Source of the DNA: Candidatus Saccharimonadota bacterium
Lineage (GTDB): Bacteria; Patescibacteriota; Saccharimonadia; Saccharimonadales; JACOTW01
Reading direction: 5' to 3'
Assembly: GCA_016178135.1 (NCBI GenBank)
Contig: JACOTW010000004.1
Location: 2,681-66,680 of the forward strand
DNA length: 64,000 nucleotides
The translations under genes and the position numbers were made by a program. Shown here in pieces: positions 388 through 55,809 of the stretch; position 1 is the stretch's first letter; each line of letters starts with the position of its first letter. The notes under the pieces are model-generated. The model saw only the letters and a list, made by a program, of their open reading frames with translations, made no database searches and was not told where the DNA came from.

Positions 388-569
388 TATACTGGACTTA
401 CGCAAAATCCCTCGTTCCCAGGGCGAATCAGCTCGAGCGAAAACAGTTTTATCCGAAGGAGAGGTACCAGGGAGGTACATCGAGAGAGGAAAAGCTGTTT
501 GCAGCCGAGATTAGTCGGTCTGGGGATGAGGGAGCTTTGCGTAAGACCTCATATATTAAGTCCAGTATA
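388..569 (+). mobile_element. Family B palindromic TIR element, copy B1 (variant core; 13-bp insertion in the right TIR)
   Basis: The ends are TATACTGGACTTACGCAAA and TTTGCGTAAG[ACCTCATATATTA]AGTCCAGTATA. It lies 25 bp from A1. Confidence 0.75.
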
Positions 570-2757: not shown

Positions 2758-3288
2758 ATGGTAAAAACAAAAAAATCATTTTTAAACAAAGTTATTCTAG
2801 CAGTTGTCGTAGGATTACTTGTAGTTGTCGGGGTTTACGCATACAAAAACCGCTACAAGGAAAAACCTCAAACTGGTAGTCAATACGGACCCACCATGGA
2901 ACAGCAGAAACAAGAAGCCGATATCAATGCCCAGGCCAAAAAACAAGCTATTGAGAACGGTAACGGTTCATCCCAAGGAACAGAAATACCAGCTACTCCA
3001 AATTCTTCAGCTAACATAACTCTGTCAGCCCAAAAAGAATCCAACAACACCGTAACAATATTTACCAAGCTTGCAAAAATCAGTAACGGAACGTGCGAAC
3101 TTGCGGTTACTAACGGTACTAAACAAACCTCACAAACTGCTGAAGTTATTTACCAATCAGAATATTCCAGTTGCGCGGGATTTAGTGTTCCGATTGAAAG
3201 TGTTGGTTTGGGCATTTGGACTATCAAGCTGACCGTTACCTATGGCGGACAGTCAATATCAAACAGTATTACCTATGAGGTAAAATGA
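2758..3288 (+). CDS. Hypothetical membrane-anchored or secreted protein
   Basis: 176 aa with an N-terminal TM segment (VILAVVVGLLVVVGVYAY). Its stop overlaps the next start (ATGA). I recognised no motif. Confidence 0.5.
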   Translation: MVKTKKSFLNKVILAVVVGLLVVVGVYAYKNRYKEKPQTGSQYGPTMEQQKQEADINAQAKKQAIENGNGSSQGTEIPATPNSSANITLSAQKESNNTVTIFTKLAKISNGTCELAVTNGTKQTSQTAEVIYQSEYSSCAGFSVPIESVGLGIWTIKLTVTYGGQSISNSITYEVK

Positions 3289-9134: not shown

Positions 9135-10292
9135 ATGCCAAAAAGGAAATTAAAAGTTTTTGTGGATGCTGAAGTCTTAATCGCTCCACATTTTAGTGGC
9201 ATCGGCCATTACACACTAGAGCTACTAAGAGCTCTGGACGGATTGATAGAAGATCGGTCAGATATAGAAATATCGCTTGGCGTTTATTATAAAAGGGTTG
9301 CCCAGATTAGAGCTTATGGATTCAGGAATTTCAAAATACGCAGATCGCCTTTTCCCTTAAGACTTTCAAACGCAATGAAAATTCGTGGCTGGCAACCATT
9401 CTATGATCTTTTTTTTGGTAAAAAAATCTATTTGTTTCCCAATTACACGTCTTGGCCATTATTATTCTCTAAATCAATTTCCATCGTATATGATCTTTCG
9501 TTTGAGTATTTTCCGCAGTACGTCGAGCCCCGCAATCAAAAATTTCTTAGTGATAATGTCAAAAAATCCGTAAAACGTTCAACAAAAATCATAACCATAT
9601 CAACAAATAGCCAAAAGGAAATCGTGAAATTCTATGGTATACCAAAAGGAAATGTTTCTATTGTATACCCAGGAGTTGACCAAAAAGAATTCTACAGACG
9701 ACCAGATAGCGAGATAAAAGACGTTATGGCACGTTATGGTATTCATGGTAAATATATTTTGTTTGTGGGTAATATCGAGCCAAGAAAGAACCTTAAAGGC
9801 TTGCTACTGGCCTATGAAAAACTAAGTGCCGACAGTCGCAAGCAATATTCACTATTACTTGTAGGTGCCAGAGGTTGGCTAGATGATGAAATCTTTGAAA
9901 TCATTGGACGCTTAAGAAAAAATGGCAACCACATCCAACAACCACTTGAATATGTCAATGACCATGACAGACCAGCAATATTTAGTGGGGCTTCGTTGTT
10001 CGTTTATCCCAGTCTTTATGAGGGTTTTGGTATTCCACCAATTGAAGCCATGGCCTGCGGAGTACCGGTAATTACCAGCAACAACTCATCCTTGCCGGAA
10101 GCCGTTGGCAAAGCGGCCACGATGGTAGATATCAAATCTATAGGTGATCTAGCCAATGCTATGAAATCCGTTTTAGGCAACCCAAAACTACAAGCAAATA
10201 TGATACAAGGCGGTTACCAGCAAGCAGATAAGTTCTCTTGGGACAATGAAGCCAAAAAATTACTGCGAATATTAGAGGATACAAACAATTGA
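9135..10292 (+). CDS. GT4 (GT-B) glycosyltransferase
   Basis: 385 aa with the EGFGIPPIEAMACGVPVITS motif (E-x7-E region) of family 4 transferases. Confidence 0.85.
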   Translation: MPKRKLKVFVDAEVLIAPHFSGIGHYTLELLRALDGLIEDRSDIEISLGVYYKRVAQIRAYGFRNFKIRRSPFPLRLSNAMKIRGWQPFYDLFFGKKIYLFPNYTSWPLLFSKSISIVYDLSFEYFPQYVEPRNQKFLSDNVKKSVKRSTKIITISTNSQKEIVKFYGIPKGNVSIVYPGVDQKEFYRRPDSEIKDVMARYGIHGKYILFVGNIEPRKNLKGLLLAYEKLSADSRKQYSLLLVGARGWLDDEIFEIIGRLRKNGNHIQQPLEYVNDHDRPAIFSGASLFVYPSLYEGFGIPPIEAMACGVPVITSNNSSLPEAVGKAATMVDIKSIGDLANAMKSVLGNPKLQANMIQGGYQQADKFSWDNEAKKLLRILEDTNN

Positions 10293-11623
10293 AAACTATT
10301 TGCTTTGACCTACGAGCCCTACAGATAGGCCATGAAAACCGCGGTATCGGAATGTATATAAAAAGCGTTCTCGAGAACATGCCAATAGATAAAAATAAAT
10401 ATATTTTCTACGCATTCGACAAAAATGATCCTATAAAAACTCTTGATATTAAATTTCAAAACACCTACGAGCTGATCCAAACACCTACAATAAAAACCGC
10501 CCTTGGTTCTCCCCGCGACATAATAGGGCTTATCAAACTTATCAATCATCGTTTTTACCCTCTTAAAAAAATAAATCCTGATGTATTTGTACAGTTTGAT
10601 TTCACACTTGGCATACCTAGGTGGAAAAAGACGAAAACAATAGTTGTTGGTTATGATTTGATACCGTTGATTATGAAGAACGAGTATCTACCCAGTGTAT
10701 CTTTTGCCCTAAAACACTCGGCACCACAACATCAAGGAATGCTGAAACATTTTGTGCGATCAATAGTTTTTAGATTGAAACATAAGTCTTTCGCTATCAA
10801 AAAGCCATCAATCATATTGCGTAAGCCCTTTATTGCCATGGTTCGCTCTATTTATTACCGCTTAAAATATCGGTTGCATTACAAAGTTTTTAAACGTGCT
10901 GACCGAATTGTCGCTATTTCTGAATCAACCGCAGAGGATTTCATCAATATCCTCGGAGTAAGCAGAAAAAAGGTGTCAAGCATTCCTCTTGCCCCAGTAT
11001 TGCCTGACGGCTCTCCGGACTTTTCCATTTCAAGGAAAATTTCTAAACCGTACGTTTTTTATATAGGTGGTACCGACAGCCGCAAAAAAATCCAAGATAT
11101 TATCTATGCTTTTAACATAGCTAAGGGACGCGGAGCGGATATCGCACTAGTACTTGCCGGAAATGAATTCAGTAAATTAGAGAGCCTACCAAACGTAGAG
11201 GGCAGGAACGCGATACTGAAAAGTCCTTACAGGCAAGATATACACCTTGTCGGATTTGTTAGCGACGCTCAAAAGATGGGTCTATATAAATCTGCCCACG
11301 CTTTCATATTCTGCACCATATACGAAGGTTTTGGCTTGCCAATAATAGAGGCTATGAGTGCCTCATGCCCAGTTATTAGCTATAATAATTCATCAATACC
11401 CGAAACTGCCGGTAACGCAGCCCTACTGGTTGACACGGGAGATTACGTAGCCATAGCCAATAAAATAATCGCCCTGGAAGATAAAAAATTAAAACAGGTA
11501 ATTATAGAAAAAGGCATAAAACAAGCAAATAAGTTTAACTGGAAGATTTATGTGACAGAATTTAAAAAAGTTCTGACAGGTATAGCCCCCGCAAAACAAA
11601 TTCGGGGGTTTTGGAGCCGATGA
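10289..11623 (+). CDS. GT4 glycosyltransferase whose last ~13 codons and stop lie inside element A2
   Basis: 444 aa with YEGFGLPIIEAMSASCPVISY. The C-terminus ...VLTG-IAPAKQIRGFWSR* is read from the A2 TIR. Confidence 0.8.
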   Translation: MKTICFDLRALQIGHENRGIGMYIKSVLENMPIDKNKYIFYAFDKNDPIKTLDIKFQNTYELIQTPTIKTALGSPRDIIGLIKLINHRFYPLKKINPDVFVQFDFTLGIPRWKKTKTIVVGYDLIPLIMKNEYLPSVSFALKHSAPQHQGMLKHFVRSIVFRLKHKSFAIKKPSIILRKPFIAMVRSIYYRLKYRLHYKVFKRADRIVAISESTAEDFINILGVSRKKVSSIPLAPVLPDGSPDFSISRKISKPYVFYIGGTDSRKKIQDIIYAFNIAKGRGADIALVLAGNEFSKLESLPNVEGRNAILKSPYRQDIHLVGFVSDAQKMGLYKSAHAFIFCTIYEGFGLPIIEAMSASCPVISYNNSSIPETAGNAALLVDTGDYVAIANKIIALEDKKLKQVIIEKGIKQANKFNWKIYVTEFKKVLTGIAPAKQIRGFWSR

Positions 11624-11747
11624 TCTTCGAGTCAAAAACTGGCTCTTCTGAGGGAAGCATATCATTAGATAAGGTGAGTGAGGAAAGACAGTTTTTGGCC
11701 GGAGAGGGCGGTTCAAAAAGCCGTTAATTTGTTTTGCGGGGGCTATA
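11581..11747 (+). mobile_element. Family A element, copy A2, subfamily 2, 167 bp
   Basis: It has the same TIRs as A1. The core is GGAGCCGATGATCTTCGAGTCAAAAACTGGCTCTTCTGAGGGAAGC... Confidence 0.85.
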
Positions 11748-11764
11748 ATTAGCAAGAGTTATCC

Positions 11765-11799
11765 GGTTTGCCCCCCTAGAGTCACAAGTAGGGCAAGCC
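11765..11799. terminator. Hairpin between convergent genes (possible bidirectional terminator)
   Basis: GGTTTGCCC pairs with GGGCAAGCC (9 bp, one G-U) around a 17-nt loop, followed by AATTTT. The loop is long, so support is weak. Confidence 0.3.
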
Positions 11800-11823
11800 A
11801 ATTTTCCGACAAACCCAGATGTC

Positions 11824-12720
11824 TTATTTTTTAGATTTTATACTTTTCTTATACTTAAACCAATCCACAGTTAGACCGTACAAGGCTCTTTTTAGCCGTC
11901 GTGGCCAAGATTGTTGCATCATACTTAATTGCATTAATAACTCTGTCTTATGCTTCAGATGATCTATTTCTAGTTTCTGCGCTTCTGCCATATTGTTTAA
12001 GACAGTTAATAGCCCGGAATCTTCCGTCCATGATTGCCATTGGTGTTGTTTCAGGGCATGATAGTCAAGTTTGATGACGCGTTCAGCAAATCCTTCAGTT
12101 CTGTGCCAACTTTCTTTTGCTACATAATACTCGTTGAGACCATCAGCTAAAAACAACTTATAATCGTTCTTTGTAAGGATAGGACGCCAATCTTTAGACA
12201 CATGATTTGCCTCAATACAAATAACTTCGGGTCTAAATTTATTCCAATTATTTCCAATTATGACTTGGTATTCAAAACCCTCTACATCTATTTTCAGAAA
12301 ATGAATGTGCTCAACTTTGTGCTCAATAAATATGTCTTTTAGTGGCTTTACGTCTACTGTGTAGTCTATATAGTCATCAATCTCATCGTGCTGCTGCTTC
12401 TGATGAATGTTGAAAGTTGAATGACCCGAGCTGTCTCTGTATTCTCGAAAAACTTCTTTGTAAACCTTATCGCCTATACCAATCTGCAACGTGATGTCCT
12501 TGGGACGATCCTTAATAAGCTGCTCACACAAACTCTTAATAGGCTCTATATTAATGCCATGCCAACCCTTTTCATAAAACAGTTTTGTTACTGAATCAAT
12601 AACTGAATAATTGGCCCCTACATCGACGTAGAATCCCTTTTGAGTATCATGTAGCAGCGCTAGGAGTATTATGTCTTCGTTGTATTGAGCGTATGTGGTT
12701 ATTGCTTTTGGGTCAATCAT
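11824..12720 (-). CDS. FkbM-family methyltransferase
   Basis: 298 aa with FYVDVGANYSVIDS and FLKIDVEGFEYQVI, typical of FkbM-type methyltransferases. Confidence 0.75.
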   Translation of the reverse strand: MIDPKAITTYAQYNEDIILLALLHDTQKGFYVDVGANYSVIDSVTKLFYEKGWHGINIEPIKSLCEQLIKDRPKDITLQIGIGDKVYKEVFREYRDSSGHSTFNIHQKQQHDEIDDYIDYTVDVKPLKDIFIEHKVEHIHFLKIDVEGFEYQVIIGNNWNKFRPEVICIEANHVSKDWRPILTKNDYKLFLADGLNEYYVAKESWHRTEGFAERVIKLDYHALKQHQWQSWTEDSGLLTVLNNMAEAQKLEIDHLKHKTELLMQLSMMQQSWPRRLKRALYGLTVDWFKYKKSIKSKK

Positions 12721-12722
12721 TA

Positions 12723-13709
12723 TTATTTATTTGCCGCCTCTTGGGCAATCCCTATCATCAAAGCAATATCTTCCTCGTATGGTCTAAAGAGTGAGTTGTC
12801 ACTATGATTTAACGAAACATCGACCTTGAAATCCTTATCCCGCTTATCAAAAGAGGCAACAATAAGACCATCTCCACTAAAAGATTCTAATATATTATGA
12901 GATGAAATTATGTAGGCACCATTATCCAATAAAAATTGTTTGCATTTTTGATGAGTCATTGGGTCATGTGAAAAAGTGTAGTGATGAGTTGATATGAAAA
13001 TAAATCTAACTTTATCTTCTTTTATGCTTTCTATCGCACCCTGAAGTGCATTAAGCTCAACCCCCTGTACATCCATGTGCAATATATCAATTTTTTTTAT
13101 ATGCTTCTCTTTTACCAACGAGTCAACCGACCTAATTATGGATTGCTTTTTTTGGCTGGGGTCTGAATCAAGAGTAAACTCTATCTTTTTGCCATCTTCA
13201 TTTCCTGCAGCACTATCAATGAAAGTAATTCTATCTGCAAGACCGTTAATAGCCGCGTTAGCTTCTCCGATTTTCCTGTTTACAGGATCAGGCTCACAAG
13301 CCAGTGCCCTACTATTTTTAAATTGATAGAGTAACCAAAGGCTATAGTAAGACCAGAAACTGCCAAGCTCCAAAATCGTAGGTGCGCCTTTAAGTCTCTT
13401 TAGTACTTCGTAATAAAGTTTTTCTTCTTGTGGTTCATGATGACCGTTCAATTTAGTAATAATTTCTTTCATCCAGTCGCCGTGGTAACCGCCAGAAATA
13501 ACTTTTAACCCATTGTGTAGTATTTGCACCTCTTTGCCCTTGCATACCTCTACATTGCCCGCATATTTAACTTTCGGTATATAGTCACAATCATGGCATG
13601 AAATTGTCATTTCTATTCTTTGCGCAATATCCTTGCGCCAAGGATTTATTGCGTTAAGTTGAGCGATTGGATCAATTGGAGTACGTGATTTGCGCCTAGA
13701 TATTTTCAT
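12723..13709 (-). CDS. FkbM-family methyltransferase
   Basis: 328 aa with ILELGSFWSYYS and ILHMDVQGVELNAL. Confidence 0.7.
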   Translation of the reverse strand: MKISRRKSRTPIDPIAQLNAINPWRKDIAQRIEMTISCHDCDYIPKVKYAGNVEVCKGKEVQILHNGLKVISGGYHGDWMKEIITKLNGHHEPQEEKLYYEVLKRLKGAPTILELGSFWSYYSLWLLYQFKNSRALACEPDPVNRKIGEANAAINGLADRITFIDSAAGNEDGKKIEFTLDSDPSQKKQSIIRSVDSLVKEKHIKKIDILHMDVQGVELNALQGAIESIKEDKVRFIFISTHHYTFSHDPMTHQKCKQFLLDNGAYIISSHNILESFSGDGLIVASFDKRDKDFKVDVSLNHSDNSLFRPYEEDIALMIGIAQEAANK

Positions 13710-14896
13710 TTTATTCCTATACTTAAGTGAATATTAGGCGTTACGATATATGGTGAAATATAATCTTTTTTTATTGAAAAACTTATAGCGTCAGACCACC
13801 AGTCAACGACACTATTACCATCCTCTTTCAATAACGCTAGATCTACTGTGTACTGGCCATCGGATAATATATTCTCAAATATTACTTGAAAATTATATTT
13901 CGATTCTCTGGAAATTTTGGGTATTTTTACTTTTAACATATGGCTGTTTGCCCCAAGAACCGATAGCCCTTCAGCGTTTTTTATCAAAAAACCGAATATT
14001 GGATGAGTTAATTCTAAGCTTGATATGATATTACCTTTTATGGAAACTTCTATATTATTAACACTAACACCTATATCCTGTATTGTCATTGGAGTTTCGC
14101 CCCAACGATTTTGTGATTCAGCGACTGTCGCTACACCTGGATCTCCTCCTATAAATAATTCGGTGTAAGCTTGTGCGATTTGATCTGTATCTCCTTGTGA
14201 TTGAATCATACCACCATCTATCAATAGTGCTTTATTACAAAATTGTCTAATTGCGTTCATGTCGTGACTCACAAACACCACTGTTTTTTTATCTTTTTTC
14301 AGTTTCTTGAAATAATTGAAGCATTTGCGCTGGAAGTCGGCGTCTCCTACAGCTAGAACTTCATCAATAAGTAAAATGTCAGCTTTGGCGCGAATAGCCA
14401 TTGAAAAAGCTAAACGAACTTGCATGCCAGACGAATAGTTTTTGAGCTTTTGATCCATAAATTTTTCCAACTCGGCAAATTCAACTATGTCATCATACTG
14501 ATCGTCAATTTCTTTTTTACTGAAGCCTAGTAGCGCGCCGTTTAGATAAACGTTCTCACGGCCAGTTAGCTCTGGACTAAAACCAACACCTAGTTCAATA
14601 AACGGCACTAGCTTGCCGGTTACCTGAATCGATCCTTTGGTTGGCTGGTAAATGCCTGCTAACATTTTTAAGAGGGTGCTTTTGCCACTACCGTTACGTC
14701 CGACGATGCCAAAAAATTCGCCTTTTTTTACTTCAAAACTTACATTTTTTAGAGCATGTTGAGTTTCATAAGAACGATTTTTACGGATAAGTCTAAATAT
14801 GCCCGTGAAAACGTTTTTTATTGATCCTATCTTTTCGTGCGGTAAACGAAAGTTTTTGGAAACACCACTAACCTTTATAGCAATATCGTCCGACAT
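13706..14896 (-). CDS. wzt: Polysaccharide-export ABC transporter ATP-binding protein (Wzt/TagH-type) with a C-terminal extra domain
   Basis: 396 aa with Walker A GRNGSGKST, signature YSSGMQVRL and Walker B ILLIDEV. A ~150-aa C-terminal domain resembles the glycan-terminus-binding domain of Wzt proteins. Confidence 0.85.
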   Translation of the reverse strand: MSDDIAIKVSGVSKNFRLPHEKIGSIKNVFTGIFRLIRKNRSYETQHALKNVSFEVKKGEFFGIVGRNGSGKSTLLKMLAGIYQPTKGSIQVTGKLVPFIELGVGFSPELTGRENVYLNGALLGFSKKEIDDQYDDIVEFAELEKFMDQKLKNYSSGMQVRLAFSMAIRAKADILLIDEVLAVGDADFQRKCFNYFKKLKKDKKTVVFVSHDMNAIRQFCNKALLIDGGMIQSQGDTDQIAQAYTELFIGGDPGVATVAESQNRWGETPMTIQDIGVSVNNIEVSIKGNIISSLELTHPIFGFLIKNAEGLSVLGANSHMLKVKIPKISRESKYNFQVIFENILSDGQYTVDLALLKEDGNSVVDWWSDAISFSIKKDYISPYIVTPNIHLSIGIK

Positions 14897-14999
14897 CTAT
14901 AGACCCATCCCTTGACAAGTGAATAGAACACATGTTACTATGTACGTACAATGCCTTAGGGCTCCGAGGATCTCGCGCAAGTGGGGTCCGATTTTTTTA

Positions 15000-15401
15000 T
15001 CAGACATTCCGTACTCCGTCCAGTTCTTTATGTAACCTACCTATTACCTTTTCAAATTCTGTTTTACTAATTTTATACATTTTTCTTTGTAGCCTCTTTG
15101 AATCATATAATCTTAACTGGGATATTATAGCCGAATAGTCTTGGTTGTCATGTCTAAGTTGTAGGTAGTGGAGATTTTCGGGTTTTATTTTTGTCGATAA
15201 TGGCACACCCCAAAAGACAAATTTATTAAACTTACGTGCCACCAAAACAGGACGTTCAAAGAGTTCGTTTTTGCCATCCTGTTCAAAACCAACATTCAAC
15301 CCTAGTGAGCACCACCATACTTCAGCATTCTTGCAAAAAGCATTATTTGTATTTTCTTCAATGATTTTCTTGATACCATTCCAGCTGTCAAAATCTTTCA
15401 T
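15000..15401 (-). CDS. PemK/MazF-like toxin-fold protein
   Basis: 133 aa. AEVWWCSLGLNVGFEQDGKNELFERPVLV matches the G.E..G.RP.LV core of PemK/MazF-family proteins. Confidence 0.55.
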   Translation of the reverse strand: MKDFDSWNGIKKIIEENTNNAFCKNAEVWWCSLGLNVGFEQDGKNELFERPVLVARKFNKFVFWGVPLSTKIKPENLHYLQLRHDNQDYSAIISQLRLYDSKRLQRKMYKISKTEFEKVIGRLHKELDGVRNV

Positions 15402-15403
15402 CG

Positions 15404-16027
15404 TTACAGGTTCTCCTTGGGCTTCTTGGGCATGTGCCCGGGTTCGAGGTTGACTTTTGTAGTCTTTTTTGCTATATTTAGCCTATCACCATTGCCAGAT
15501 ACGCCTAAGGTTTCGACCGACCGCCGAGTCTGGCTCTTTTTATACTCTATAGCATTCCTAATCTGTTCCGCCTTAATAATATGTTGATAGAACGGCTGCA
15601 ATAACTGAGAGTACTTGTGGGTCGGTGTAATGATTTTAAGAAGCTTCTTATTATCCAAAAGATACTCCACTAGGCAGGCAAAGTCCCCATCACCCGTCAC
15701 TATGATGGCTCTATCGTAATGCTTGTACTCTATTGCTGCCGCATGCAGGACAAGCTCAGCATCAACGTTACCTTTTACTGTTTCTTTGCCATTCTCAAAA
15801 TAACGCACTGTGGGCTTAAAAATAAGAATAAATCCTGCGCTCTGTAGTTGTGTATAAAGTTTCTGGTTATTTGCAACCAGACCAATAAACATAAAAGCCT
15901 TCTCGATATCATGTTTATTCTTTAGGTAGAGACGTAACTTTTTATAATCTAACCGCCAGCCAAGTGAACGAACCCCTAGGTTTAAGTTCTGGCTATCTAT
16001 GAAGGCGTAATTCTTCCCCTTAGTCAT
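15404..16027 (-). CDS. NYN (LabA-like) domain protein, predicted RNase fold
   Basis: 207 aa with YAFIDSQNLN and IVTGDGDFACLVEYL, typical NYN/LabA motifs. Its start codon overlaps the wzm stop by one base. Confidence 0.7.
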   Translation of the reverse strand: MTKGKNYAFIDSQNLNLGVRSLGWRLDYKKLRLYLKNKHDIEKAFMFIGLVANNQKLYTQLQSAGFILIFKPTVRYFENGKETVKGNVDAELVLHAAAIEYKHYDRAIIVTGDGDFACLVEYLLDNKKLLKIITPTHKYSQLLQPFYQHIIKAEQIRNAIEYKKSQTRRSVETLGVSGNGDRLNIAKKTTKVNLEPGHMPKKPKENL

Positions 16028-16839
16028 TACACATTCTCCGCAAAGCTAGGAGCTTGTTTTTTGAAATATACAGTAGATACAAGAACGACAGTTGCTACGA
16101 TTCCAAGCGGAACCAAGTACGCCAGCTTACTGCCAAAGACCGAGCCAACCGTAGCTGTTTGATTGGTAATCAACCCATACCGAGCATCTTGAATGATTTG
16201 AGCCAGGGGATTTAACATCATTATTTTGCCCAACATCTCGCTCTTGCCACTGACGAACGAAAAAGCGTAAAGAATAGGAGTAGCGTAAAAAGCCGCCTGA
16301 ATTAATACTTCCCATATGTAATTTATATCTCTAAAGCGAACAAAAGCGGCACTCAAGAAAAATCCTATTGCCAATGAAAATATAAAAAGTTCGCCTATTA
16401 GCAAAGGCAGAAAAATCAAATTCTGATTGGGTTCTGCTTTGCCCAGCCACATAAACAACGACACAACTAGAAGATTCAGGGAAAGATTTATTAGTGCCGA
16501 GAAGGAGCTAGCCAATACAATAACATAGCGTGGAAAGTTTACTTTACGCATAATATCGCCCTTACCAACTATAGCGCCGACACTCCCAGTAGTAACTTCC
16601 ACGAAGTAGTTCCATAAAATTATTCCGAGTAATAGGTAAATACCAAAATGCGGAACGTCGCCACCGGTTTTTAGAACCTGAACAAAAACCACGTATAGAA
16701 TCATGAATAAAAACAGTGGCCTTAGTAATGTCCACAGATATCCAAGCACGGAATTTTGGTACCGTAGTTTGAAGTCAGTTTTTACCATCTGCTTGAGTAA
16801 AATTATGGAATATCTGTAGCGTGCGCTTAATTTTTTCAC
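16027..16839 (-). CDS. wzm: ABC-2 type polysaccharide-export permease (Wzm/TagG-type)
   Basis: It has KTDFKLRYQNSVLGYLW and six TM segments. The track ORF extends to a TTG at 16908, but that extension is read from a family B TIR fragment. I prefer the GTG at 16839. The start is uncertain. Confidence 0.75.
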   Translation of the reverse strand: MKKLSARYRYSIILLKQMVKTDFKLRYQNSVLGYLWTLLRPLFLFMILYVVFVQVLKTGGDVPHFGIYLLLGIILWNYFVEVTTGSVGAIVGKGDIMRKVNFPRYVIVLASSFSALINLSLNLLVVSLFMWLGKAEPNQNLIFLPLLIGELFIFSLAIGFFLSAAFVRFRDINYIWEVLIQAAFYATPILYAFSFVSGKSEMLGKIMMLNPLAQIIQDARYGLITNQTATVGSVFGSKLAYLVPLGIVATVVLVSTVYFKKQAPSFAENV

Positions 16840-16860
16840 GTTCTTCCATTTTATAGTTTT

Positions 16861-16893
16861 TACTGGACTTACGCAAAGCTCCCCATTCCCAGC
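16861..16893 (-). repeat. Family B terminal fragment
   Basis: TACTGGACTTACGCAAAGCTCCCCATTCCCAGC matches one end of family B. Confidence 0.6.
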
Positions 16894-16950
16894 AATTTTA
16901 TACAACAACTTAGATTTTGGTTTTTAACAGAGGTAGTGTAGGCTGAAAAT

Positions 16951-18051
16951 ATGCCGAAAATTATGGTAACAGGAGTGAATGGATTTGTGGGCAAGCATCT
17001 GGTCCGTGAACTAGTGGCTCGAAAATGTACGGTTACTGGAGTTGGTCGTGATAAAAACGTCGATAAATCTTTGGAGAATATCGTATCGAACTATTATTCG
17101 TGTGATTTAACTGATAAATCCGCAGTAGCAATACTCCCGCTTGATTCAATTGATGCTGTTATAAACCTGGCTGGCCTGGCAAGAGTCGGAGAGTCTTTTG
17201 ATAAGCCAGATTTTTACAAACATGTTAATGTTGGCGTTTTATCTGTTCTATCGGAACGTCTATTGGCTTTATCTTCTGGGGCTCGTGTGATTGCCGTTAG
17301 CACAGGGGCGGTTTATGATCCTAGGCAACCTATGCCACTTAACGAAGGATCTATTCTACTGGACTTACGCAAAATCGCCCGTTCCCAGGGCAAATCAGCT
17401 CGAGTTGAGAGTGGTTTGACTGAAGGAGAGGTAGCCTTAGCTACATCGAAAGAAGACAGACCGCTACCGCTTGAGATTAGTTGGTCTGGGGATGGGGGAG
17501 CTTTGCGTAAGTCCAGTCTAATAACTTCTGGTTCTCCTTACGCACTTAGTAAGATTGATATGGAAATAGTAGTTTCGGATTTGAGAAGTAGAGGTTTGGA
17601 TTGTATTATAGCGCGACCATTTAATCATATAGGGCCAGGCCAAGACATCGGCTTCTTAGTCCCCGATTTATACACCAAAATCCTAAGGGCTAATCAGTCT
17701 GGTGGCACAATAGCCGTAGGTGACTTAACGACCAGACGGGATTATACCGACGTCCGAGATGTGGTGCGAGCATATGCGGACCTCGCAGTCGCCCCCACAT
17801 TGCAACATGCTGTTTATAACGTTTGTAGTGGCCGTAGCGTGTCAGGGGGAAAGATCCTGGAATTACTACTAAAAGAAACTGGTCAAGTGGGGAAAATTAA
17901 TGTTACCACCGATTCTGCTTTTATAAGGCCGAATGATCCCGAGGACTTATTTGGCAGCAATGAGCGCCTGCATAATGAAACTGGCTGGCAACCAACAATC
18001 CCGCTTGAGCAGACAATTACAGATTTTGTGAACTCTAAAAGCACTTATTAA
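16951..18051 (+). CDS. NAD-dependent sugar-nucleotide reductase/epimerase (extended SDR; Rmd-like by context), carrying in-frame element B2
   Basis: 366 aa with the Rossmann motif VTGVNGFVGKHL, a VSTGAVY segment and the catalytic PYALSK (YxxxK). About 53 codons between them come from the family B element. Confidence 0.7.
   Translation: MPKIMVTGVNGFVGKHLVRELVARKCTVTGVGRDKNVDKSLENIVSNYYSCDLTDKSAVAILPLDSIDAVINLAGLARVGESFDKPDFYKHVNVGVLSVLSERLLALSSGARVIAVSTGAVYDPRQPMPLNEGSILLDLRKIARSQGKSARVESGLTEGEVALATSKEDRPLPLEISWSGDGGALRKSSLITSGSPYALSKIDMEIVVSDLRSRGLDCIIARPFNHIGPGQDIGFLVPDLYTKILRANQSGGTIAVGDLTTRRDYTDVRDVVRAYADLAVAPTLQHAVYNVCSGRSVSGGKILELLLKETGQVGKINVTTDSAFIRPNDPEDLFGSNERLHNETGWQPTIPLEQTITDFVNSKSTY
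17357..17517 (+). mobile_element. Family B element, copy B2, full length, inside a CDS and in frame
   Basis: It runs TACTGGACTTACGCAAAATCGCCCGTTCCCAGGG...GTAGCCTTAGCTAC...GGGGAGCTTTGCGTAAGTCCAGT. The host ORF stays open through it. Confidence 0.85.
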
Positions 18052-19028
18052 CTTTCGAGTTTTAGATCGTGGTCGACCATCATTTTTACCAAACCCGGGA
18101 AGTCTACTTGACGTTTCCAGCCTAGCACTTTCTCGGCCTTAGTTGGGTTGCCGAGTAATATATCCACCTCGGCAGGACGCATGAAAGCAGGGTTTTGTTT
18201 GACGTAAGGCTTCCAATCATCAATGCCAATTTCTTTAAACGCAAGGTCTAGAAATTCACCAATAGTGTGTGTTTCACCTGTTGCTAGCACGTAATCATCT
18301 GGCTTGTCCTGTTGTAGTATCCGCCACATGCCCTCTACGTAATCACCAGCATAGCCCCAATCACGTTTGGGGTCCAAACTACCCAGCTCAATGTAGTCTT
18401 GCTTACCGAGCTTGATCCTTGCAACTGCATTACTAATTTTTCGCGTCACAAATTCTAAGCCTCTGCGCTCGCCCTCGTGATTGAACAAAATGCCACAGCT
18501 GGCGTGCATATCATAACTTTCACGGTAGTTTTTGGTAATCCAGTGGCCATATAGCTTGGCAACACCATACGGGCTTCGTGGATGGAACAGGGAGTCTTCA
18601 TCATAGCCTTTGCCGGGGCGATTGTAATCAAGTCCGCCGAACATTTCCGAGGTAGACGCCTGATAAAACCGCACCGATTTCTCTCCACCACTTAGTCTTA
18701 TGGCTTCTAGCATGTTTAGAACGCCCTTGCCTGTAACGTCAACGGTTAGTTGCGGGTTCTTAAACGAATATCCTACATGGCTTACAGCCGCGAGGTTATA
18801 GACCTCATCTGGCTTAGAAACTTCCATGGCGCGAATCAGAGATGATTGATCTGTTAGATCTGCTTCAATTATTGTGACATATGGAAATTCAGCCTCTGTT
18901 ATTTGGCGGCGTGGGTTATGCTGACCACGAATTATCCCAAAGACTTTGTAGCCTTTTTCATGCAACAGTTTTGCCAAATGCCCGCCATCCTGCCCAGTAA
19001 TACCCGTGATAAGTGCGTTCTTTGCCAT
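18048..19028 (-). CDS. gmd: GDP-mannose 4,6-dehydratase
   Basis: 326 aa. ALITGITGQDGGHLAKLLHEKGYKVFGIIR and SPYGVAKLY are characteristic of Gmd. Confidence 0.9.
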   Translation of the reverse strand: MAKNALITGITGQDGGHLAKLLHEKGYKVFGIIRGQHNPRRQITEAEFPYVTIIEADLTDQSSLIRAMEVSKPDEVYNLAAVSHVGYSFKNPQLTVDVTGKGVLNMLEAIRLSGGEKSVRFYQASTSEMFGGLDYNRPGKGYDEDSLFHPRSPYGVAKLYGHWITKNYRESYDMHASCGILFNHEGERRGLEFVTRKISNAVARIKLGKQDYIELGSLDPKRDWGYAGDYVEGMWRILQQDKPDDYVLATGETHTIGEFLDLAFKEIGIDDWKPYVKQNPAFMRPAEVDILLGNPTKAEKVLGWKRQVDFPGLVKMMVDHDLKLES

Positions 19029-19099
19029 TCCTCTCCCTTTGATTTATGCTGTTGTATATAACCATTCTAACAAACTAGGAATAAACGCGCTGGTGTAAT

Positions 19100-20197
19100 A
19101 TGAAAAAAATCGTTATTGACGCAAGAGAATTCGGAGGCACAGGCGGTGGGACATATCTCAAACATCTTCTTCAAAAACTTCAAGAAATAGACAATAATCA
19201 CAAATATGTGGTGCTACTAAAGCCCAAAGATATGGATAGCTGGAAGCCTGTTAATCGCAAGTTCGAAAAGCTACAATGTAATTACAAAGAGTTTACATTT
19301 GCCGAGCAAATTGGATTATTCAAACAACTTCGTAGTCTAAAAGCTGACCTCGTACACTTCCCTATGACCCAACAACCTGTGCTTTACCGCGGAAAAGTCG
19401 TAACAACAATAAACGATCTTACTACTGTGCGATTCCGTAATCCTAGCAAAAACTGGCTTATTTTTACTATAAAACGTTGGGTATATAAATGGGTTGCCTT
19501 GGTAGCTGCGCGAAAATCTAAAGCATTGTTAACATATACTGAATTCGTCAAAAACGATGTTGCCAAATTTGCCCACGTTAATAGTAGAAAAATTACCGTT
19601 ACTTATTTGGCGGCAGATAAAATTACCGAAGAACCTAGACCCGTAGAAAACTTGGAAAATGTGCAGTTTATTATGTACGTTGGGCGTCCCCAGCCACATA
19701 AAAACCTGGACCGTTTAGTAGAAGCTTTTACGTTGATAAAGCAAACCCACCCCGAGTTGAAATTAGTGCTGGCCGGCAAAAAAGATGTCTTGTACCGTCG
19801 CATAGCCACAAAGATTAAATACCGGAAAATTCCAGATATTATTTTTACTGGGTTTGTCGACGAAGGCCAATTACGTTGGCTGTACGAACATACAGCTTGC
19901 TATGTTTTTCCATCCTTGAGCGAGGGCTTTGGGCTGCCAGGCCTAGAGGCCATGAATCATGGAGCACCAGTAGTATCCAGCAACGCCACTTGTCTGCCAG
20001 AGGTCTATGGCGATGCTGCTGAATATTTCGACCCACTAAATGTTGAAGAAATGGCACAAGCTATAGCCAAAGTTATCGACAAACCAAAACGCCGCGATGA
20101 ATTAGTCGCCTTGGGCAAGAAACAAGCTAATAAATACTCCTGGCAGCGCATGGCCGAACAAACCCTGGCCGTCTACAAAGAAGCCTTAGGCGATTAA
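19100..20197 (+). CDS. GT4 glycosyltransferase
   Basis: 365 aa with SEGFGLPGLEAMNHGAPVVSS. Confidence 0.85.
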   Translation: MKKIVIDAREFGGTGGGTYLKHLLQKLQEIDNNHKYVVLLKPKDMDSWKPVNRKFEKLQCNYKEFTFAEQIGLFKQLRSLKADLVHFPMTQQPVLYRGKVVTTINDLTTVRFRNPSKNWLIFTIKRWVYKWVALVAARKSKALLTYTEFVKNDVAKFAHVNSRKITVTYLAADKITEEPRPVENLENVQFIMYVGRPQPHKNLDRLVEAFTLIKQTHPELKLVLAGKKDVLYRRIATKIKYRKIPDIIFTGFVDEGQLRWLYEHTACYVFPSLSEGFGLPGLEAMNHGAPVVSSNATCLPEVYGDAAEYFDPLNVEEMAQAIAKVIDKPKRRDELVALGKKQANKYSWQRMAEQTLAVYKEALGD

Positions 20198-20763
20198 GAA
20201 CTATGGTCTTTGAGCCATTTGGTAATCTCGTCGATGCCCAGGTGCTCAACAGCGACCTGAACTGCAAAGTCTTCGAGTTCACTTGGTTTGGCGGTAAGTT
20301 TTTTATGATTTCTCACTAAGAAAATTCCAACTATCGTAACGGCAGCCCGTTTATTGCCGTCAACGAAGGGATGATCACCAATTATATTTCGCAGATATAC
20401 CGCTGCTTTTTCTAAAACTGTGGGGTACTGTTCTGAGCCAAAAACTGTTTGCTGTGGGGCAGCCACAACAGACAATAACCGACCCTCGTCTCTAACGCCA
20501 TGAGAGCCCCCAAAATCTTCGATTATCCGGAAGTGCAACTTCAATATCTCTTCAGGGCTTAGATATAGCCCCCGCAAAACAAATTCCCGACTTTTCGAAT
20601 CACCCTCTTTGGCCCAAAACCGCCTTTCCTCGTTCAACGTATCTAAGGATATGTCTCTCTGGGAAAAGTCAGTTTTTGGCTCAAAGATCATTGCTTCAAA
20701 AACCTCAAAGATCATTGCTTCAAAAACCCACGAATTTGTTTTGCGGGGACTATAAGTTATCAT
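20194..20763 (-). CDS. doc: Doc/Fic-family toxin with a 63-codon in-frame family A insertion after codon 3
   Basis: It has the Doc-type Fic motif HPFVDGNKRAA. The N-terminus reads MIT-[YSPRKTNS...EFVLRGL]-YLSPEEILKLH. Its ATG overlaps the antitoxin stop (ATGA). Confidence 0.8.
   Translation of the reverse strand: MITYSPRKTNSWVFEAMIFEVFEAMIFEPKTDFSQRDISLDTLNEERRFWAKEGDSKSREFVLRGLYLSPEEILKLHFRIIEDFGGSHGVRDEGRLLSVVAAPQQTVFGSEQYPTVLEKAAVYLRNIIGDHPFVDGNKRAAVTIVGIFLVRNHKKLTAKPSELEDFAVQVAVEHLGIDEITKWLKDHSS
20564..20754 (-). mobile_element. Family A element, copy A3, subfamily 1, 191 bp (24-bp internal tandem duplication)
   Basis: Both TIRs are present. TCAAAGATCATTGCTTCAAAAACC is duplicated in tandem. 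The copy lies inside doc. Confidence 0.85.
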
Positions 20764-20975
20764 CTATCAGCAAGGTTTTTTAGAGTTTGGCCATATTCTT
20801 TGACAAACTTATTGTAATCTTCCATGAGCTTGTCATGGTCATCCTTTTTTAGGGACTCAACCATAACCTTGACTTCATCCCCATAAGAAATACCTTGGCG
20901 TTTCATCTCCTTTGCAGGGATAGTAACGCCACCGCTTGAACCTATTTTGATGACTTTTTGGATACTTTCAATCAT
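20760..20975 (-). CDS. AbrB/SpoVT-type antitoxin (Phd-role partner of Doc)
   Basis: 71 aa. KIGSSGGVTIPAKEMKRQGISYGDEV is a swapped-hairpin AbrB/MazE-like motif. It is translationally coupled to doc. Confidence 0.7.
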   Translation of the reverse strand: MIESIQKVIKIGSSGGVTIPAKEMKRQGISYGDEVKVMVESLKKDDHDKLMEDYNKFVKEYGQTLKNLADR

Positions 20976-28331: not shown

Positions 28332-28390
28332 TCGTTTTATTTTGTTCCTTCGGAGATAGCGTCATTAATCGGGGATGATGCCCCGGGTAT

Positions 28391-28579
28391 TATAGCCCCC
28401 GCAAAACAAATTCGTGGGTTTTTGAAGCAATGATCTTTGAGTCAAAAACTGACTTTTCCGAGAGAGACATATCCTTAGATACGTTGAACGAGGAAAGGCG
28501 GTTTTGGGCCAAAGAGGGTGATTCGAAAAGCCAAAGAGGGTGATTCGAAAAGTCGGGAATTTGTTTTGCGGGGGCTGTA
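28391..28579 (+). mobile_element. Family A element, copy A4, subfamily 1, 189 bp (22-bp internal tandem duplication)
   Basis: CCAAAGAGGGTGATTCGAAAAG is duplicated. The right TIR ends CTGTA and runs directly into a family B half element. Confidence 0.85.
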
Positions 28580-28663
28580 GCTAAGGCTACCTCTTCTTCA
28601 GTCAAACCACTCCCAACTCGAGCTGATTTGCCCTGGGAACGGGCGATTTTGGGTAAGTCCAGT
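28577..28663 (-). repeat. Family B half element (from the central palindrome to one TIR)
   Basis: GTAGCTAAGGCTACCTCTTCTTCAGTCAAACCACTCCCAACTCGAGCTGATTTGCCCTGGGAACGGGCGATTTTGGGTAAGTCCAGT is the reverse complement of the left half of B2. Confidence 0.8.
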
Positions 28664-31760: not shown

Positions 31761-31804
31761 AAACATTTTCGCTCGAGATAATTCACTCTGGGAACAGACG
31801 GTTT
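31761..31804 (-). repeat. Family B partial (variant half)
   Basis: AAACATTTTCGCTCGAGATAATTCACTCTGGGAACAGACGG matches the variant half seen at 51760-51800 and 53487-53515. Confidence 0.55.
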
Positions 31805-31968
31805 TACTGGACCTGTCGCAAAGCTCCCCCCATCCCGAGACCAATTCATCTCGGCTGGTAGCGGTCTGTCTTCTCTCGATGTAGCTAAGGCTACCTCCCC
31901 TTCAGTCAAACCACTCCCAACTCGAGCTGATTTAGCCTGGGAACGGGCGATTTTGCGATAGGTCCAGT
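31805..31968 (-). mobile_element. Family B element, copy B3 (TIR variant CTGGACCTGTCGCAAA), in the rpmH-dnaA spacer
   Basis: It runs TACTGGACCTGTCGCAAAGCTCCCCCCATCCCGAGACC...GTAGCTAAGGCTAC...GGGCGATTTTGCGATAGGTCCAGT. Confidence 0.8.
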
Positions 31969-33599: not shown

Positions 33600-33689
33600 A
33601 AGCCAAATCCAAAACTCATCATCACACGTGGTTGGTTGTGTACGAGTTGTGCAAAAATACAAGGTAAACCTGTGCGTAACTGGGGGTGA

Positions 33690-33890
33690 TTTTACACGGA
33701 TGGGTTTTGGACTTTTGGTTACTGGGTATAAAACTATGGACTTTCCATTTTTTATACATTTTTTATACACCAACATTCCCACATATTTAGTACGGCTAGT
33801 TCTTGATGTGCGGTTAGGTTTTTACACACTTTCCACAATACCTATTAAAGAAACTACTAATTAAGATATTTAAATAAAAGGAGTATTTAT
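33690..33890. promoter_or_regulatory. Candidate oriC: relaxed DnaA-box cluster plus an AT-rich stretch in the dnaA-dnaN spacer
   Basis: The 9-mers are TTTTACACG 33690, TTTATACAT 33751, TTATACACC 33763, TTCCCACAT 33776, TTTTACACA 33820 and CTTTCCACA 33829. The AT-rich run AATTAAGATATTTAAATAAAA follows. Confidence 0.45.
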
Positions 33891-34985: not shown

Positions 34986-35000
34986 GCTACAATTAGAAGC

Positions 35001-41115: not shown

Positions 41116-41274
41116 ACACGAATTTCGCACTTTTCCATCGCTCCAGATGACACCTGACAGGCTACAGTCGCTCATTCCTCACTCAACATAACAATGGTTA
41201 TGTCTCCCTCGGATTGAACAACCGTAACCAGCCAGTTGCCACCTGGCATCAATGGCTAAGTGCGAAACTCGTGT
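41116..41274 (+). mobile_element. Family C palindromic TIR element, copy C1, 159 bp
   Basis: It is bounded by ACACGAATTTCGCACTTTTCCATCGC and GGCTAAGTGCGAAACTCGTGT. It fills the virB4-downstream gene spacer and abuts the virB4 stop. Confidence 0.8.
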
Positions 41275-50558: not shown

Positions 50559-51113
50559 ATGAATCAAATTATCAAACGAATAACTGGACTGGGTGGCTTA
50601 CGCAAAACTTCCCCATCTCCAGATCAACCAATCTTGGCTGGTAGTGGCCTGTCTTCTGGCGATGTAGCTATGGCTTCTTCGGTCAAGCCACTCCCAATTC
50701 GAGCTGATTTAGCCTGGGAACGGGCGATTTTGCGTAAGTCCAGTCTACTGATAAGTTGTCTGGTGATTCTTGGAGGATTTTTCGCTTCCGCGCCACCCGC
50801 TTTTGCCCTATTTGAAAACGCCGCCAAAGAGGCCTGTAGTGGCGTGACCCTTAATGAAAACACGACTGATTGCCCGGACAGTTCAGGCAAAGTTAATAAT
50901 TTGCTTACGACAGTTATAAATATATTTTCCGTGGCTATAGGTTTTATCGCAGTAATTATGATTATTATTTCTGGACTTCGTTATGTTACTTCTGCTGGCG
51001 ACAGTAATGCCACATCCGGAGCCAAGAACACCCTGTTATATGCCGTTGTAGGCTTGGTAATAGTGGTGTTGGCGCAGGTTATTGTTCGATTTGTGCTTAG
51101 TAAGACTGGTTGA
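50559..51113 (+). CDS. VirB2/TrbC-like pilin paralog 5, with family B element B4 in frame inside the signal peptide
   Basis: The ATG at 50559 gives MNQIIKRI-[54 element-derived aa]-LISCLVILGGFFASAPPAFA. The module is MIIISGLRYVTSAGDSNATSGAKNTLLYAVVGLVI. Confidence 0.6.
   Translation: MNQIIKRITGLGGLRKTSPSPDQPILAGSGLSSGDVAMASSVKPLPIRADLAWERAILRKSSLLISCLVILGGFFASAPPAFALFENAAKEACSGVTLNENTTDCPDSSGKVNNLLTTVINIFSVAIGFIAVIMIIISGLRYVTSAGDSNATSGAKNTLLYAVVGLVIVVLAQVIVRFVLSKTG
50583..50744 (-). mobile_element. Family B element, copy B4, inside a CDS and in frame
   Basis: It runs ACTGGAC[TGGGTGGC]TTACGCAAAACTTCCCCATCTCCAGATC...GTAGCTATGGCTTC...GGGCGATTTTGCGTAAGTCCAGT. One TIR carries an 8-bp insertion. 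Confidence 0.8.
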
Positions 51114-51603: not shown

Positions 51604-51859
51604 CGGATTTACGTAAAAAGCTCCCTTGTCCCCCAGACTGAATCGGCTCGAGCTATACTGGACCTGTCGCAAAGCTTCCCCATCCCCAGACCAAATAATC
51701 TCGGCTGGTAGCAGTCTGTCTTCTCTCGATGTAGCTATGGCTACCTCTCCTTCAGACAAAACAGTTTTCGCTCGAGATAATTCACTCTGGGAACGGACGA
51801 GTTTTCGTAAGTCCAGTCGAGCTGATTTAGCCTGGGAACGGGCGATTATCGCGTAAGTT
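51604..51859 (-). repeat. Cluster of family B sequences: partial + full copy B5 (51654-51817) + partial
   Basis: The full copy runs TATACTGGACCTGTCGCAAAGCTTCCCCATCCCCAGACC...GTAGCTATGGCTAC...GAGTTTTCGTAAGTCCAGT. It is flanked by GGATTTACGTAAAAAGCTCCCTTGTCCCCCAGAC... and CGAGCTGATTTAGCCTGGGAACGGGCGATTATCGCGTAAGTT. Confidence 0.75.
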
Positions 51860-55011: not shown

Positions 55012-55809
55012 TTAGAAGCGAACTTTGCGCATTAAGTTATCAATAACGTCGAGTTGACGTTCTTCATGTGGCAAATAAGTACTTAATATGTCCACTATTT
55101 GATCCTCTTGTTCAGGCGGATAATAGATTGATGCACCAGGTACAAAACGCTTAATAGGCATAAAGACAATAGACGAAATAGCTCCCTCTGCTACGATCGA
55201 GAAAGACTTAAACGATTCGTATGGATAAAATTTCTGGCCAATACCAACCCCCTGGCTACTTATAGCATATGATAGAGTACGTGGTTTTCTGGCGCCAAAA
55301 ATACCAAAAATAATAGCTACAAGTACCACCATGCCGGTAGAAATTTTATCTCTAGTAAAAAGAAACACCACTAAAGCCACGACAGTCGTACCGCCAAATA
55401 AGCTCACATACCATCTGTTATTTTTTTCATGAGCAATAAATTCTGATGCCGACCAGCTTATTTCATCTGAAACAGGATTTTCATACGTGAATGACGGATC
55501 TGACATATTGGATTCGGGTGAAACTTCTTGTTCTTGGGGTAAGTCAGCTCGAGCAACAACAGCTTCATTTGAACGAGTTGTATTTGTAGGCACATCGGTC
55601 GAAAGAGAACTGTTTGTAGCCGAGGTAGTTTGGGTTGGGGGTGGAGGAGCTTCGTGCGTATATGGCACAGGCACCTGTTCTATTGGCTGAACAATTTTAG
55701 TCGATTCATTGTTTTGTTGTGCGTTGTCGGCTTGAGAGGGAGGAGTATTGGTTGAATTTTCAGGTTGGATAAGTTGCCCTGGCTGATTTTGATTACTCCC
55801 ATTTTCCAT
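55012..55809 (-). CDS. Hypothetical membrane protein with a low-complexity N-terminus
   Basis: 265 aa with a Q/N/P/T-rich first ~100 aa, two TM segments and a C-terminal globular part. I recognised no motif. Confidence 0.4.
   Translation of the reverse strand: MENGSNQNQPGQLIQPENSTNTPPSQADNAQQNNESTKIVQPIEQVPVPYTHEAPPPPTQTTSATNSSLSTDVPTNTTRSNEAVVARADLPQEQEVSPESNMSDPSFTYENPVSDEISWSASEFIAHEKNNRWYVSLFGGTTVVALVVFLFTRDKISTGMVVLVAIIFGIFGARKPRTLSYAISSQGVGIGQKFYPYESFKSFSIVAEGAISSIVFMPIKRFVPGASIYYPPEQEDQIVDILSTYLPHEERQLDVIDNLMRKVRF

Follow-up and report, generated by a model that had tools for sequence, protein, structure and literature searches.

A small palindromic transposable element, here called family B, has inserted in frame into rmd, a predicted sugar-nucleotide reductase gene, in a 64,000-nucleotide stretch of contig JACOTW010000004.1 from a Candidatus Saccharimonadota bacterium (assembly GCA_016178135.1; hereafter the window). 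Family B is a non-autonomous element, or MITE (for miniature inverted-repeat transposable element), of a Saccharibacteria lineage; it is ~158 bp long and carries 15-bp terminal inverted repeats (TIRs) of IS701 type. An exact empty site in a closely related strain shows that the insertion is recent, of the cut-and-paste type and accompanied by target duplication. The element is probably not removed but translated as an extra loop in the Rmd enzyme, an outcome that resembles the palindromic repeats found inside genes of Rickettsia (RPEs).

Host gene and anatomy of the insertion

By sequence and predicted fold, the host gene codes for an Rmd-type enzyme (GDP-4-keto-6-deoxy-D-mannose reductase) of the extended short-chain dehydrogenase/reductase (SDR) class. 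Its open reading frame (ORF) of 366 codons stays open throughout the element (Table 1), as the earlier note on this DNA had read it. The protein has Pfam matches to GDP_Man_Dehyd and Epimerase, both cut into two stretches. Its best sequence matches in the Protein Data Bank (PDB) by phmmer are 2pk3 (1.6e-34) and 6x3b (3.4e-31), with the alignment interrupted at query residues ~132-190, and the top Foldseek matches of its model are 2pk3, 4lw8 and 6x3b. The GxxGxxG NAD(P)-binding motif (TGVNGFVG), S117/T118, Y197 and K201 are invariant columns in an alignment of 119 sequences.

The element enters at codon 136/137, after the STGAVY segment with S117/T118 and before the Y197-x3-K201 motif, six residues ahead of the catalytic Tyr. 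This bears out the earlier proposal that a family-B element separates the catalytic Ser/Thr region from YxxxK without breaking the frame, and the proposed place was right; the boundaries given then, 17357-17517 with ~53 amino acids, are refined to 17359-17516 and a net insert of 54 amino acids. The 158-bp element and one 4-bp TCTA copy add up to 162 bp, or 54 codons (LLDLRK...ALRKSS), and with the element in a stop-free phase the rmd reading frame continues. The filled site reads ATTCTA[CTGGAC...GTCCAG]TCTAATAAC, and the target duplication has left identical Leu CTA codons on each side of the hairpin (17356-17358 and 17518-17520). Peptides encoded by the insert include IARSQGK and VESGLTEGEVALATSK, and the junction peptide of element-free Rmd would be GSILITSGSPYALSK (also given as ...EGSILITSGSPYALSK).

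The TIR CTGGACTTACGCAAA occurs 10 times in the window with at most two mismatches, against 0.07 expected from shuffles. A single extended hairpin is predicted for the segment 17350-17525, with a folding energy of -91.1 kcal/mol (z = -10; 0/200 shuffles as stable). The TIRs, central palindrome and whole-length pairing of the arms described earlier are recovered, now with an exact 15-bp TIR and a defined apex. Compensatory double changes are seen at 15 of 41 hairpin pairs across 15 family-B copies, which indicates that the hairpin itself is maintained. Scanning for promoters and terminators gave nothing beyond shuffle expectation that could be attributed to the element.

Filled and empty alleles

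An ortholog free of the insertion, which the earlier note had envisaged, is present on a contig from the Logan assembly of SRR25508619 (L001). Its DNA is ~98% identical to the window and colinear on both flanks of the element; the alignment blocks (window 14217-17358 with L001 7255-10396, and window 17517-20590 with L001 10393-13466) share an overlap of exactly 4 bp, and the empty site, ATTCTAATAAC, holds one TCTA only. The encoded protein of 308 amino acids (P0002) is the closest homolog without the insert. It is 97% identical to the window Rmd (P0001) outside the insert and reads ...PLHEGSI|LITSGSPYALSK, with nothing between. The other homologs (n = 118, as listed) are 305-326 amino acids long, and the spacing from S117 to Y197 is 25-28 residues in 118/118 of them compared with 80 in P0001. 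The insertion is therefore derived, not ancestral, as far as these homologs tell, and the similar loop that the earlier note had allowed for in homologous reductases is found in none of the 118.

An independent assembly from a third sample (GCA_030841465.1; L002) is 99.3% identical to window 15539-17521 and shares the left junction of the element. Past the right end of its element the sequence is unrelated to the window, and the right arm of the element resembles other copies, which points either to a chimeric assembly or to recombination across the repeat. For this reason, differences between the window and L002 elements were rejected as mutational evidence. In L002 1984-2621 (protein P0025, residues 190-402), the rmd N-terminus and the element run in frame for 213 amino acids into an unrelated acidic protein. 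P0025 is either an assembly chimera or the product of recombination between two in-frame element copies; true recombination would add yet another host gene. A protein identical to P0001 has been deposited from two assemblies; it bears the name of a Candidatus Saccharibacteria bacterium, which identifies the host. A metagenome scan for additional rmd alleles, filled or empty, yielded none, its one match being a fragment of 48% identity.

Family B as a MITE with IS701-type ends

Family B combines TIRs, target duplication demonstrated by filled and empty sites, small size, multiple copies and the absence of a transposase, and is on these grounds a MITE. Its 4-bp target duplications (TCTA, TATA, TTTA and TAAA) fit T-N-N-A. 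Elements of the IS701 family likewise produce 4-bp target duplications (ISfinder). Furthermore, CTGGACTTACGCAAA is identical at 13 of 15 positions to the TIR of ISPlag1, an IS701-group insertion sequence of Planktothrix with the TIR CAGGACTTACGCAAG (PMC2464740), and the match in both TIR and duplication length argues for derivation from this group. Unlike ISPlag1, family B is a hairpin over its full length and its internal sequence is unrelated. No transposase with family-B ends was found among the window ORFs scanned, in the fetched loci or beside the TIR matches in the 111 loci of the scan described below.

A pattern scan with the 15-mer TIR, covering one genome per species, yielded these 111 loci. 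True family-B homologs are present in several Saccharibacteria metagenome-assembled genomes (MAGs), with copies in at least five other genomes, and the CPR2 genome GW2011_GWC2_39_10 holds diverged copies whose ends are identical. The majority of the 111 loci were rejected as family B, being chance matches or unrelated elements that share only the TIR; true homologs are limited to the Saccharibacteria and CPR2 loci. Separately, CTGGACTTACGCAAA was seen to bound shorter hairpin elements of 68-135 bp with unrelated internal sequence in Extensimonas, Comamonas, other Betaproteobacteria, Chloroflexi and cyanobacteria (loci L006, L009, L016, L035, L039, L040, L048, L049, L055, L075, L088, L089, L097, L098, L106 and L107). 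The shared ends suggest a transposase lineage, probably one of IS701 type, that is present across phyla and acts on many MITE families.

Open frame and read-through in other proteins

The rmd copy is stop-free in two of six combinations of phase and orientation, both of them phase 0 (starting CTG GAC TTA CGC AAA), one per orientation. Similarly, indel-free family-B copies have no stops in phase 0 in both orientations and two to six stops in the remaining phases, and one diverged CPR2 copy is also stop-free in phase 0.

An index-free HMMER search with the 54-residue insert against 1.84 billion representative proteins gave 43 matches, mostly short ORFs of 47-143 amino acids; a word-indexed protein search returned seven short ORFs only and, having missed the query's own protein, is no evidence of absence. 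The HMMER matches show that the element is also read through in several other predicted proteins. In a DnaX of 571 amino acids (P0134) it occupies residues 348-401 within a variable linker, and the conserved C-terminal domain follows in frame. A GT1-family glycosyltransferase of 483 amino acids (P0128), whose homologs measure 350-360, contains two copies, both clean inserts that leave every invariant motif in place. In a TlyA-like methyltransferase with S4 and FtsJ domains (P0160) the element lies at residues 149-202, inside the FtsJ domain, and the gene's DNA confirms a TIR variant with TATA/TAGA flanks. A further internal copy is found in a lysozyme-like protein with a Phage_lysozyme2 domain (P0161). 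In all four proteins the element is in phase 0, the translatable phase being the only one in which a protein-based search can detect gene-internal copies, and the host domains are intact on both sides. In two submissions, the NCBI accessions of the Rmd, DnaX and glycosyltransferase proteins differ by no more than a few hundred, and their closeness suggests that one genome carries all three.

Dozens of 'hypothetical proteins' of 47-143 amino acids in Saccharibacteria MAGs (P0121-P0127, P0129-P0133 and others) are phase-0 translations of intergenic family-B copies. These are spurious gene calls, and as such an annotation artefact.

Consequences for the enzyme

One family-B copy transposed recently into rmd and landed in the single phase in which indel-free copies are stop-free in either orientation. 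Most likely the element then stays in the gene and the mRNA, is transcribed and translated, and gives rise to a hydrophilic, largely disordered excursion of 54 residues that departs from the fold and returns to it at a single point. Selection would keep those insertions that leave the host ORF open.

P0001 has no stop, frameshift or lost invariant or catalytic residue, and STGAVY and YALSK are kept. It differs from P0002 by 10 amino acids, all conservative and all at variable columns, and the remaining locus (gmd, GT4, wzm and wzt) is strongly constrained in the same strain. The insert is hydrophilic, with a grand average of hydropathy of -0.50 and nine positive and eight negative charges. An AlphaFold 2 model of P0001 built from 119 sequences, of a kind that cannot judge destabilisation or decide enzyme activity, has a mean predicted local distance difference test (pLDDT) score of 87.8 and a predicted template modelling (pTM) score of 0.86, with a core above pLDDT 90. 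In this model the insert forms a short helix and, after it, a disordered segment (residues 151-184, pLDDT <50, low confidence); its points of exit and return lie at a small beta-bridge that immediately precedes the helix bearing Tyr197 and Lys201.

Several observations weigh against translation into a working enzyme, or against giving the open frame any special meaning. The length of the S-to-Y loop is nearly invariant in the 118 homologs, and with the insert so near the catalytic Tyr a loss of activity is quite possible. Compared with L001, rmd has 10 nonsynonymous and five synonymous differences (nonsynonymous to synonymous rate ratio, dN/dS, ~0.65), whereas five neighbouring genes pooled have 12 and 28 (~0.12; Fisher p = 0.028 against rmd). 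Three of the nonsynonymous changes (R78, R125 and N131) arose in the window lineage after the insertion, since L002 keeps the ancestral residues. In L002 itself rmd is not continuous past the element. The mRNA hairpin of -91 kcal/mol may, moreover, lower rmd expression; by analogy with the Correia elements, it could block ribosomes or attract RNase III. Finally, with two of six combinations open, about one in three random insertions of the rmd copy would keep the ORF open; this chance expectation weighs against a special significance of the open frame, as does the mostly intergenic location of family-B copies. The open frame in rmd is thus partly an accident. Loss of Rmd could be buffered, as some Gmd enzymes have weak reductase activity. 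Taken together, the sequence data leave the chances about even that Rmd with the insert keeps full activity.

Alternative explanations

The earlier note had framed the choice as tolerance or removal of the element. Tolerance is plausible at the level of the family, given the in-frame copies in other proteins. Removal found no support: an Rfam search of the window at gathering thresholds returned four tRNAs only, which speaks against a self-splicing intron or ribozyme, and the insert has no Pfam match beyond the SDR domains and, at 54 residues, is too short for an intein (~130 amino acids or more). A third option had been left out, namely a young null or hypomorphic allele whose ORF is open partly by chance, and the raised dN/dS of rmd makes it a serious rival. 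On this account a D-rhamnose-containing surface glycan has been lost or changed, with pressure from phages or a host as one conceivable cause, and decay of the gene has begun. The substitutions that followed the insertion, the invariant loop length, the two open combinations that exist by construction and the disruption of rmd past the element in L002 all fit such an allele. The substitution counts are small, however, the amino-acid changes are conservative and spare all catalytic and invariant residues, there is neither frameshift nor stop, the other genes of the locus are under strong constraint in the same strain, and the same element is tolerated in DnaX with the C-terminal domain conserved in frame. 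We regard a decaying allele as a substantial possibility that falls somewhat short of an even chance. A reversible DNA switch would also account for an exact empty allele with a single TCTA and for filled and empty alleles coexisting among strains 98-99% identical. Precise deletion, by slippage or by transposase excision, would turn rmd from filled (off or low) to empty (on), and L001 could be a revertant. In the precise excision of Tn5 and Tn10, hairpins promote slippage between flanking direct repeats, and a near-perfect hairpin between direct repeats is the type of structure that favours it. A switch is nevertheless unlikely: at 4 bp the direct repeats are very short for slippage to be efficient, the two alleles are not known to occur together in any sample, and the 118 more distant homologs are all empty, so that an ancestral empty state is the more parsimonious reading.

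The two remaining accounts can be given little weight. Skipping of the element, by cutting the hairpin from the mRNA or by ribosomal bypass from one Leu CTA codon to the other, would yield wild-type Rmd, and the matched codons on either side of a -91 kcal/mol hairpin do recall the geometry of T4 gene 60 and of the mobile 'byp' hairpins in Magnusiomyces mitochondria, where hairpin-forming inserts in coding sequence lie between a take-off and a landing codon that are identical. Those inserts measure 27-55 nt and cannot be translated. The rmd insert, in contrast, is free of stops and keeps the frame, which makes bypassing unnecessary; its 162 nt far exceed any bypass gap known to us; the gene-internal copies found are all in the translatable phase, the only phase open to a protein-based search; no window gene is split by a copy; and the Rfam search gave no intron or ribozyme match. 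Skipping is accordingly very improbable. Misplacement of the repeat within a metagenome bin is conceivable, as the genome is a MAG and L002 demonstrates that assemblies break or become chimeric at family-B repeats, but the clean 4-bp duplication, the colinearity of both flanks with L001, the same left junction in the independent L002 assembly and the deposition of an identical protein from two assemblies make an artefact the most improbable account of all. A recent in-frame MITE insertion that stays in place and is translated as a loop remains the reading that we consider probable.

Comparison with known repeats

RPEs are palindromic repeats found in frame inside Rickettsia genes (Ogata et al., 2000, 2002, as summarised in PMC10969869), and that review mentions neither Saccharibacteria nor Patescibacteria. 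As in the RPEs so summarised, family B is a palindromic repeat of ~150 bp with an open phase, is found in frame in unrelated genes (housekeeping genes among them) of a host-dependent bacterium with a small genome, and adds a hydrophilic segment while leaving the host ORF open and its conserved residues in place. Unlike the RPEs, it occurs in another phylum (Saccharibacteria and the Candidate Phyla Radiation, CPR) and has explicit transposon features: TIRs of 15 bp that match those of a known insertion sequence family, and a target duplication of 4 bp for which the empty site is proof. Family B is set apart from RPE-1 to RPE-10 of the genus Rickettsia by its host, Candidatus Saccharibacteria, by the protein matches to its insert, all 43 of which are short ORFs or the proteins described above, and probably by an unrelated sequence; it behaves as an RPE but is not a member of that group.

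Family B also resembles QMITE1 of Coxiella (PMC5896051), intragenic ERIC, pneumococcal BOX and the Correia elements of Neisseria, which are small TIR or hairpin repeats with occasional in-frame ORF fusions and stable RNA hairpins. In contrast to these, which mostly lie at gene ends or in pseudogenes, the rmd copy is in the middle of a catalytic domain and has an exact empty-site allele. In-frame insertion of a MITE is thus of a known kind, while in Saccharibacteria and CPR it seems to be undescribed; literature searches found no paper describing MITEs in Saccharibacteria.

Family-B copies and other repeats in the window

An nhmmer profile built from the five full copies was run on the 64-kb window. 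All five full copies of the earlier note were recovered with slightly shifted boundaries, and so were most of its partial copies; the partial copy proposed at 597-615 was not detected by nhmmer, and three unlisted ones (55509-55663, 44673-44764 and 48584-48636) were added. The window thus holds five full copies of 157-174 bp and at least six partial ones (Table 1), and no window gene is split by any of them. The solo TIR fragment upstream of rmd is ancestral, as it is also present in L001 and L002. The degenerate copy lies in the low-complexity N-terminal part of a predicted membrane protein of 265 amino acids without Pfam match (ORF 55012-55809, minus strand), and may represent a copy of greater age that has become part of the coding sequence in another phase.

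Table 1. Positions of rmd, its family-B insertion, neighbouring genes and further family-B copies in the window.
Feature	Position	Strand	Remarks
rmd (GDP-4-keto-6-deoxy-D-mannose reductase type, extended SDR)	16951..18051	+	366 aa including 54-aa insert; ORF list, Pfam, phmmer, Foldseek
rmd S117/T118	17299-17304	+	Within STGAVY segment
rmd catalytic Y197	17539-17541	+	
rmd K201	17551-17553	+	Y197-x3-K201
Family-B MITE copy in rmd	17359..17516	+	158 bp, near-perfect hairpin; read in stop-free phase 0; absent from syntenic L001
Left target-site duplication (TSD) TCTA	17355..17358	.	L001 empty site, alignment-block overlap
Right TSD TCTA	17517..17520	.	L001 comparison
Left TIR CTGGACTTACGCAAA	17359..17373	+	15 bp
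Right TIR	17502..17516	-	Exact reverse complement of left TIR
Hairpin apex GTAGC-CTTA-GCTAC	17431..17444	+	Family-wide conservation, compensatory changes from GC to UA
Solo TIR fragment of family B	16863..16892	+	Upstream of rmd, overlaps annotated 5' end of wzm ORF
wzt	13706-14896	-	ABC-transporter part of glycan locus (13706..16908)
PemK-like + NYN pair	15000-16027	-	Between wzt and wzm
wzm	16027-16908	-	ABC-transporter part of glycan locus
gmd (GDP-mannose 4,6-dehydratase)	18048..19028	-	Pfam GDP_Man_Dehyd 2.7e-120; pathway partner of rmd
GT4 glycosyltransferase	19100..20197	+	Same glycan locus as rmd
Full family-B copy	392..565	+	Intergenic, TSD TATA, internal 15-nt extra segment
Full family-B copy	31807..31967	-	Intergenic, just upstream of dnaA, TSD TTTA
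Full family-B copy	50584..50743	-	Upstream of type IV secretion system (T4SS) pilin gene
Full family-B copy	51658..51816	-	Intergenic, nested among partial copies 51605-51655 and 51813-51861
Partial family-B copies	28547-28662, 31762-31805, 51605-51655, 51813-51861, 53385-53532		nhmmer
Weak partial family-B copy	55838-55864		nhmmer
Further partial family-B copies	44673-44764, 48584-48636		nhmmer
Degenerate family-B copy	55509..55663	.	~63% identity, nhmmer E = 1e-6; inside ORF 55012-55809 (-)

The full copy next to dnaA lies directly upstream of dnaA-dnaN-recF (32232-36059), which is likely the replication origin region. The partial copy at 53385-53532 abuts or overlaps the end of a tRNA gene (53313-53400), and the clustering of four tRNA genes (53313-56530) with a serine recombinase gene (56880-58058) suggests an integration hotspot.

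Two further repeat families were seen. One is 176 nt long and has five copies that are 70-95% identical (191-366, 11576-11751, 28386-28561, 43226-43401 and 48669-48844), of which one overlaps the 3' end of the GT4 ORF 10289-11623 and another is contained in ORF 43187-43480, which has type IV secretion genes on either side. The other (41117-41283, 53976-54143 and 44435-44513) is found near T4SS genes and a GNAT acetyltransferase gene and consists of two adjacent blocks of ~80 nt, 90-94% identical between two copies. In addition, a 92-nt direct repeat (4854-4945 and 5016-5107; 92% identical, spacing 162 nt) starts with the TIR-like TTGGACTGACGCAAA within an ORF of 694 amino acids (3285-5369); it is probably not a MITE but a repeat domain internal to the gene.

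Glycan locus around rmd

The genes rmd and gmd stand tail to tail, with the gmd stop overlapping the rmd stop region, and the surrounding glycan locus holds wzm, wzt, three GT4 glycosyltransferase genes and FkbM-type methyltransferase genes. The layout resembles that of the D-rhamnan (common polysaccharide antigen) locus of Pseudomonas aeruginosa. No second rmd was found in the window, where the sole paralog is gmd at 26% identity.

Two toxin-antitoxin-like pairs are embedded in the locus. The PemK-like and NYN-domain pair between wzt and wzm is kept in L001; the second pair, a Doc/Fic-type gene with a small antitoxin (20194-20975), lies 3' of the GT4 gene. Window 11542-14217 and L001 5692-7255 are divergent, though the strains are 98% identical elsewhere: in this region the window carries a family-D1 repeat together with two genes for methyltransferases of FkbM type, and L001 has one gene of Methyltransf_23/11 type. 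The wzt gene is also much more diverged between the two (proportion of synonymous differences, pS, ~0.20). The difference between the two regions looks like a swapped module for glycan termination or export specificity.

Implications

In-frame palindromic repeats have been a Rickettsia curiosity for 25 years, and to our knowledge RPEs have no known transposition mechanism and no experimental test of their effect on host enzymes. The rmd case adds the hallmarks of a transposon, a candidate insertion sequence family, and natural alleles with and without the element that are ~98% identical in DNA (97% in protein), in a gene for a simple, assayable enzyme whose active site adjoins the insert.

More tentatively, family B could be a 'coding-compatible' MITE, with a master sequence so shaped that one phase is free of stops in either orientation and that the hydrophilic loop it encodes does no harm; on balance we lean away from this extension, which remains an arguable one. 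If true, it would explain how such elements persist inside genes of the gene-dense, paralog-poor genomes of Saccharibacteria and CPR, and it would represent an independent origin of the Rickettsia RPE phenomenon with identifiable transposition machinery in the form of IS701-type ends and a 4-bp duplication. It also comes with a natural pair of filled and empty alleles in an enzyme that can be assayed.

To summarize, the insertion in rmd touches on how mobile DNA survives in gene-dense reduced genomes and how new disordered loops enter proteins. A further question is whether MITE insertion may contribute to variation of surface-glycan genes in episymbiotic Saccharibacteria.

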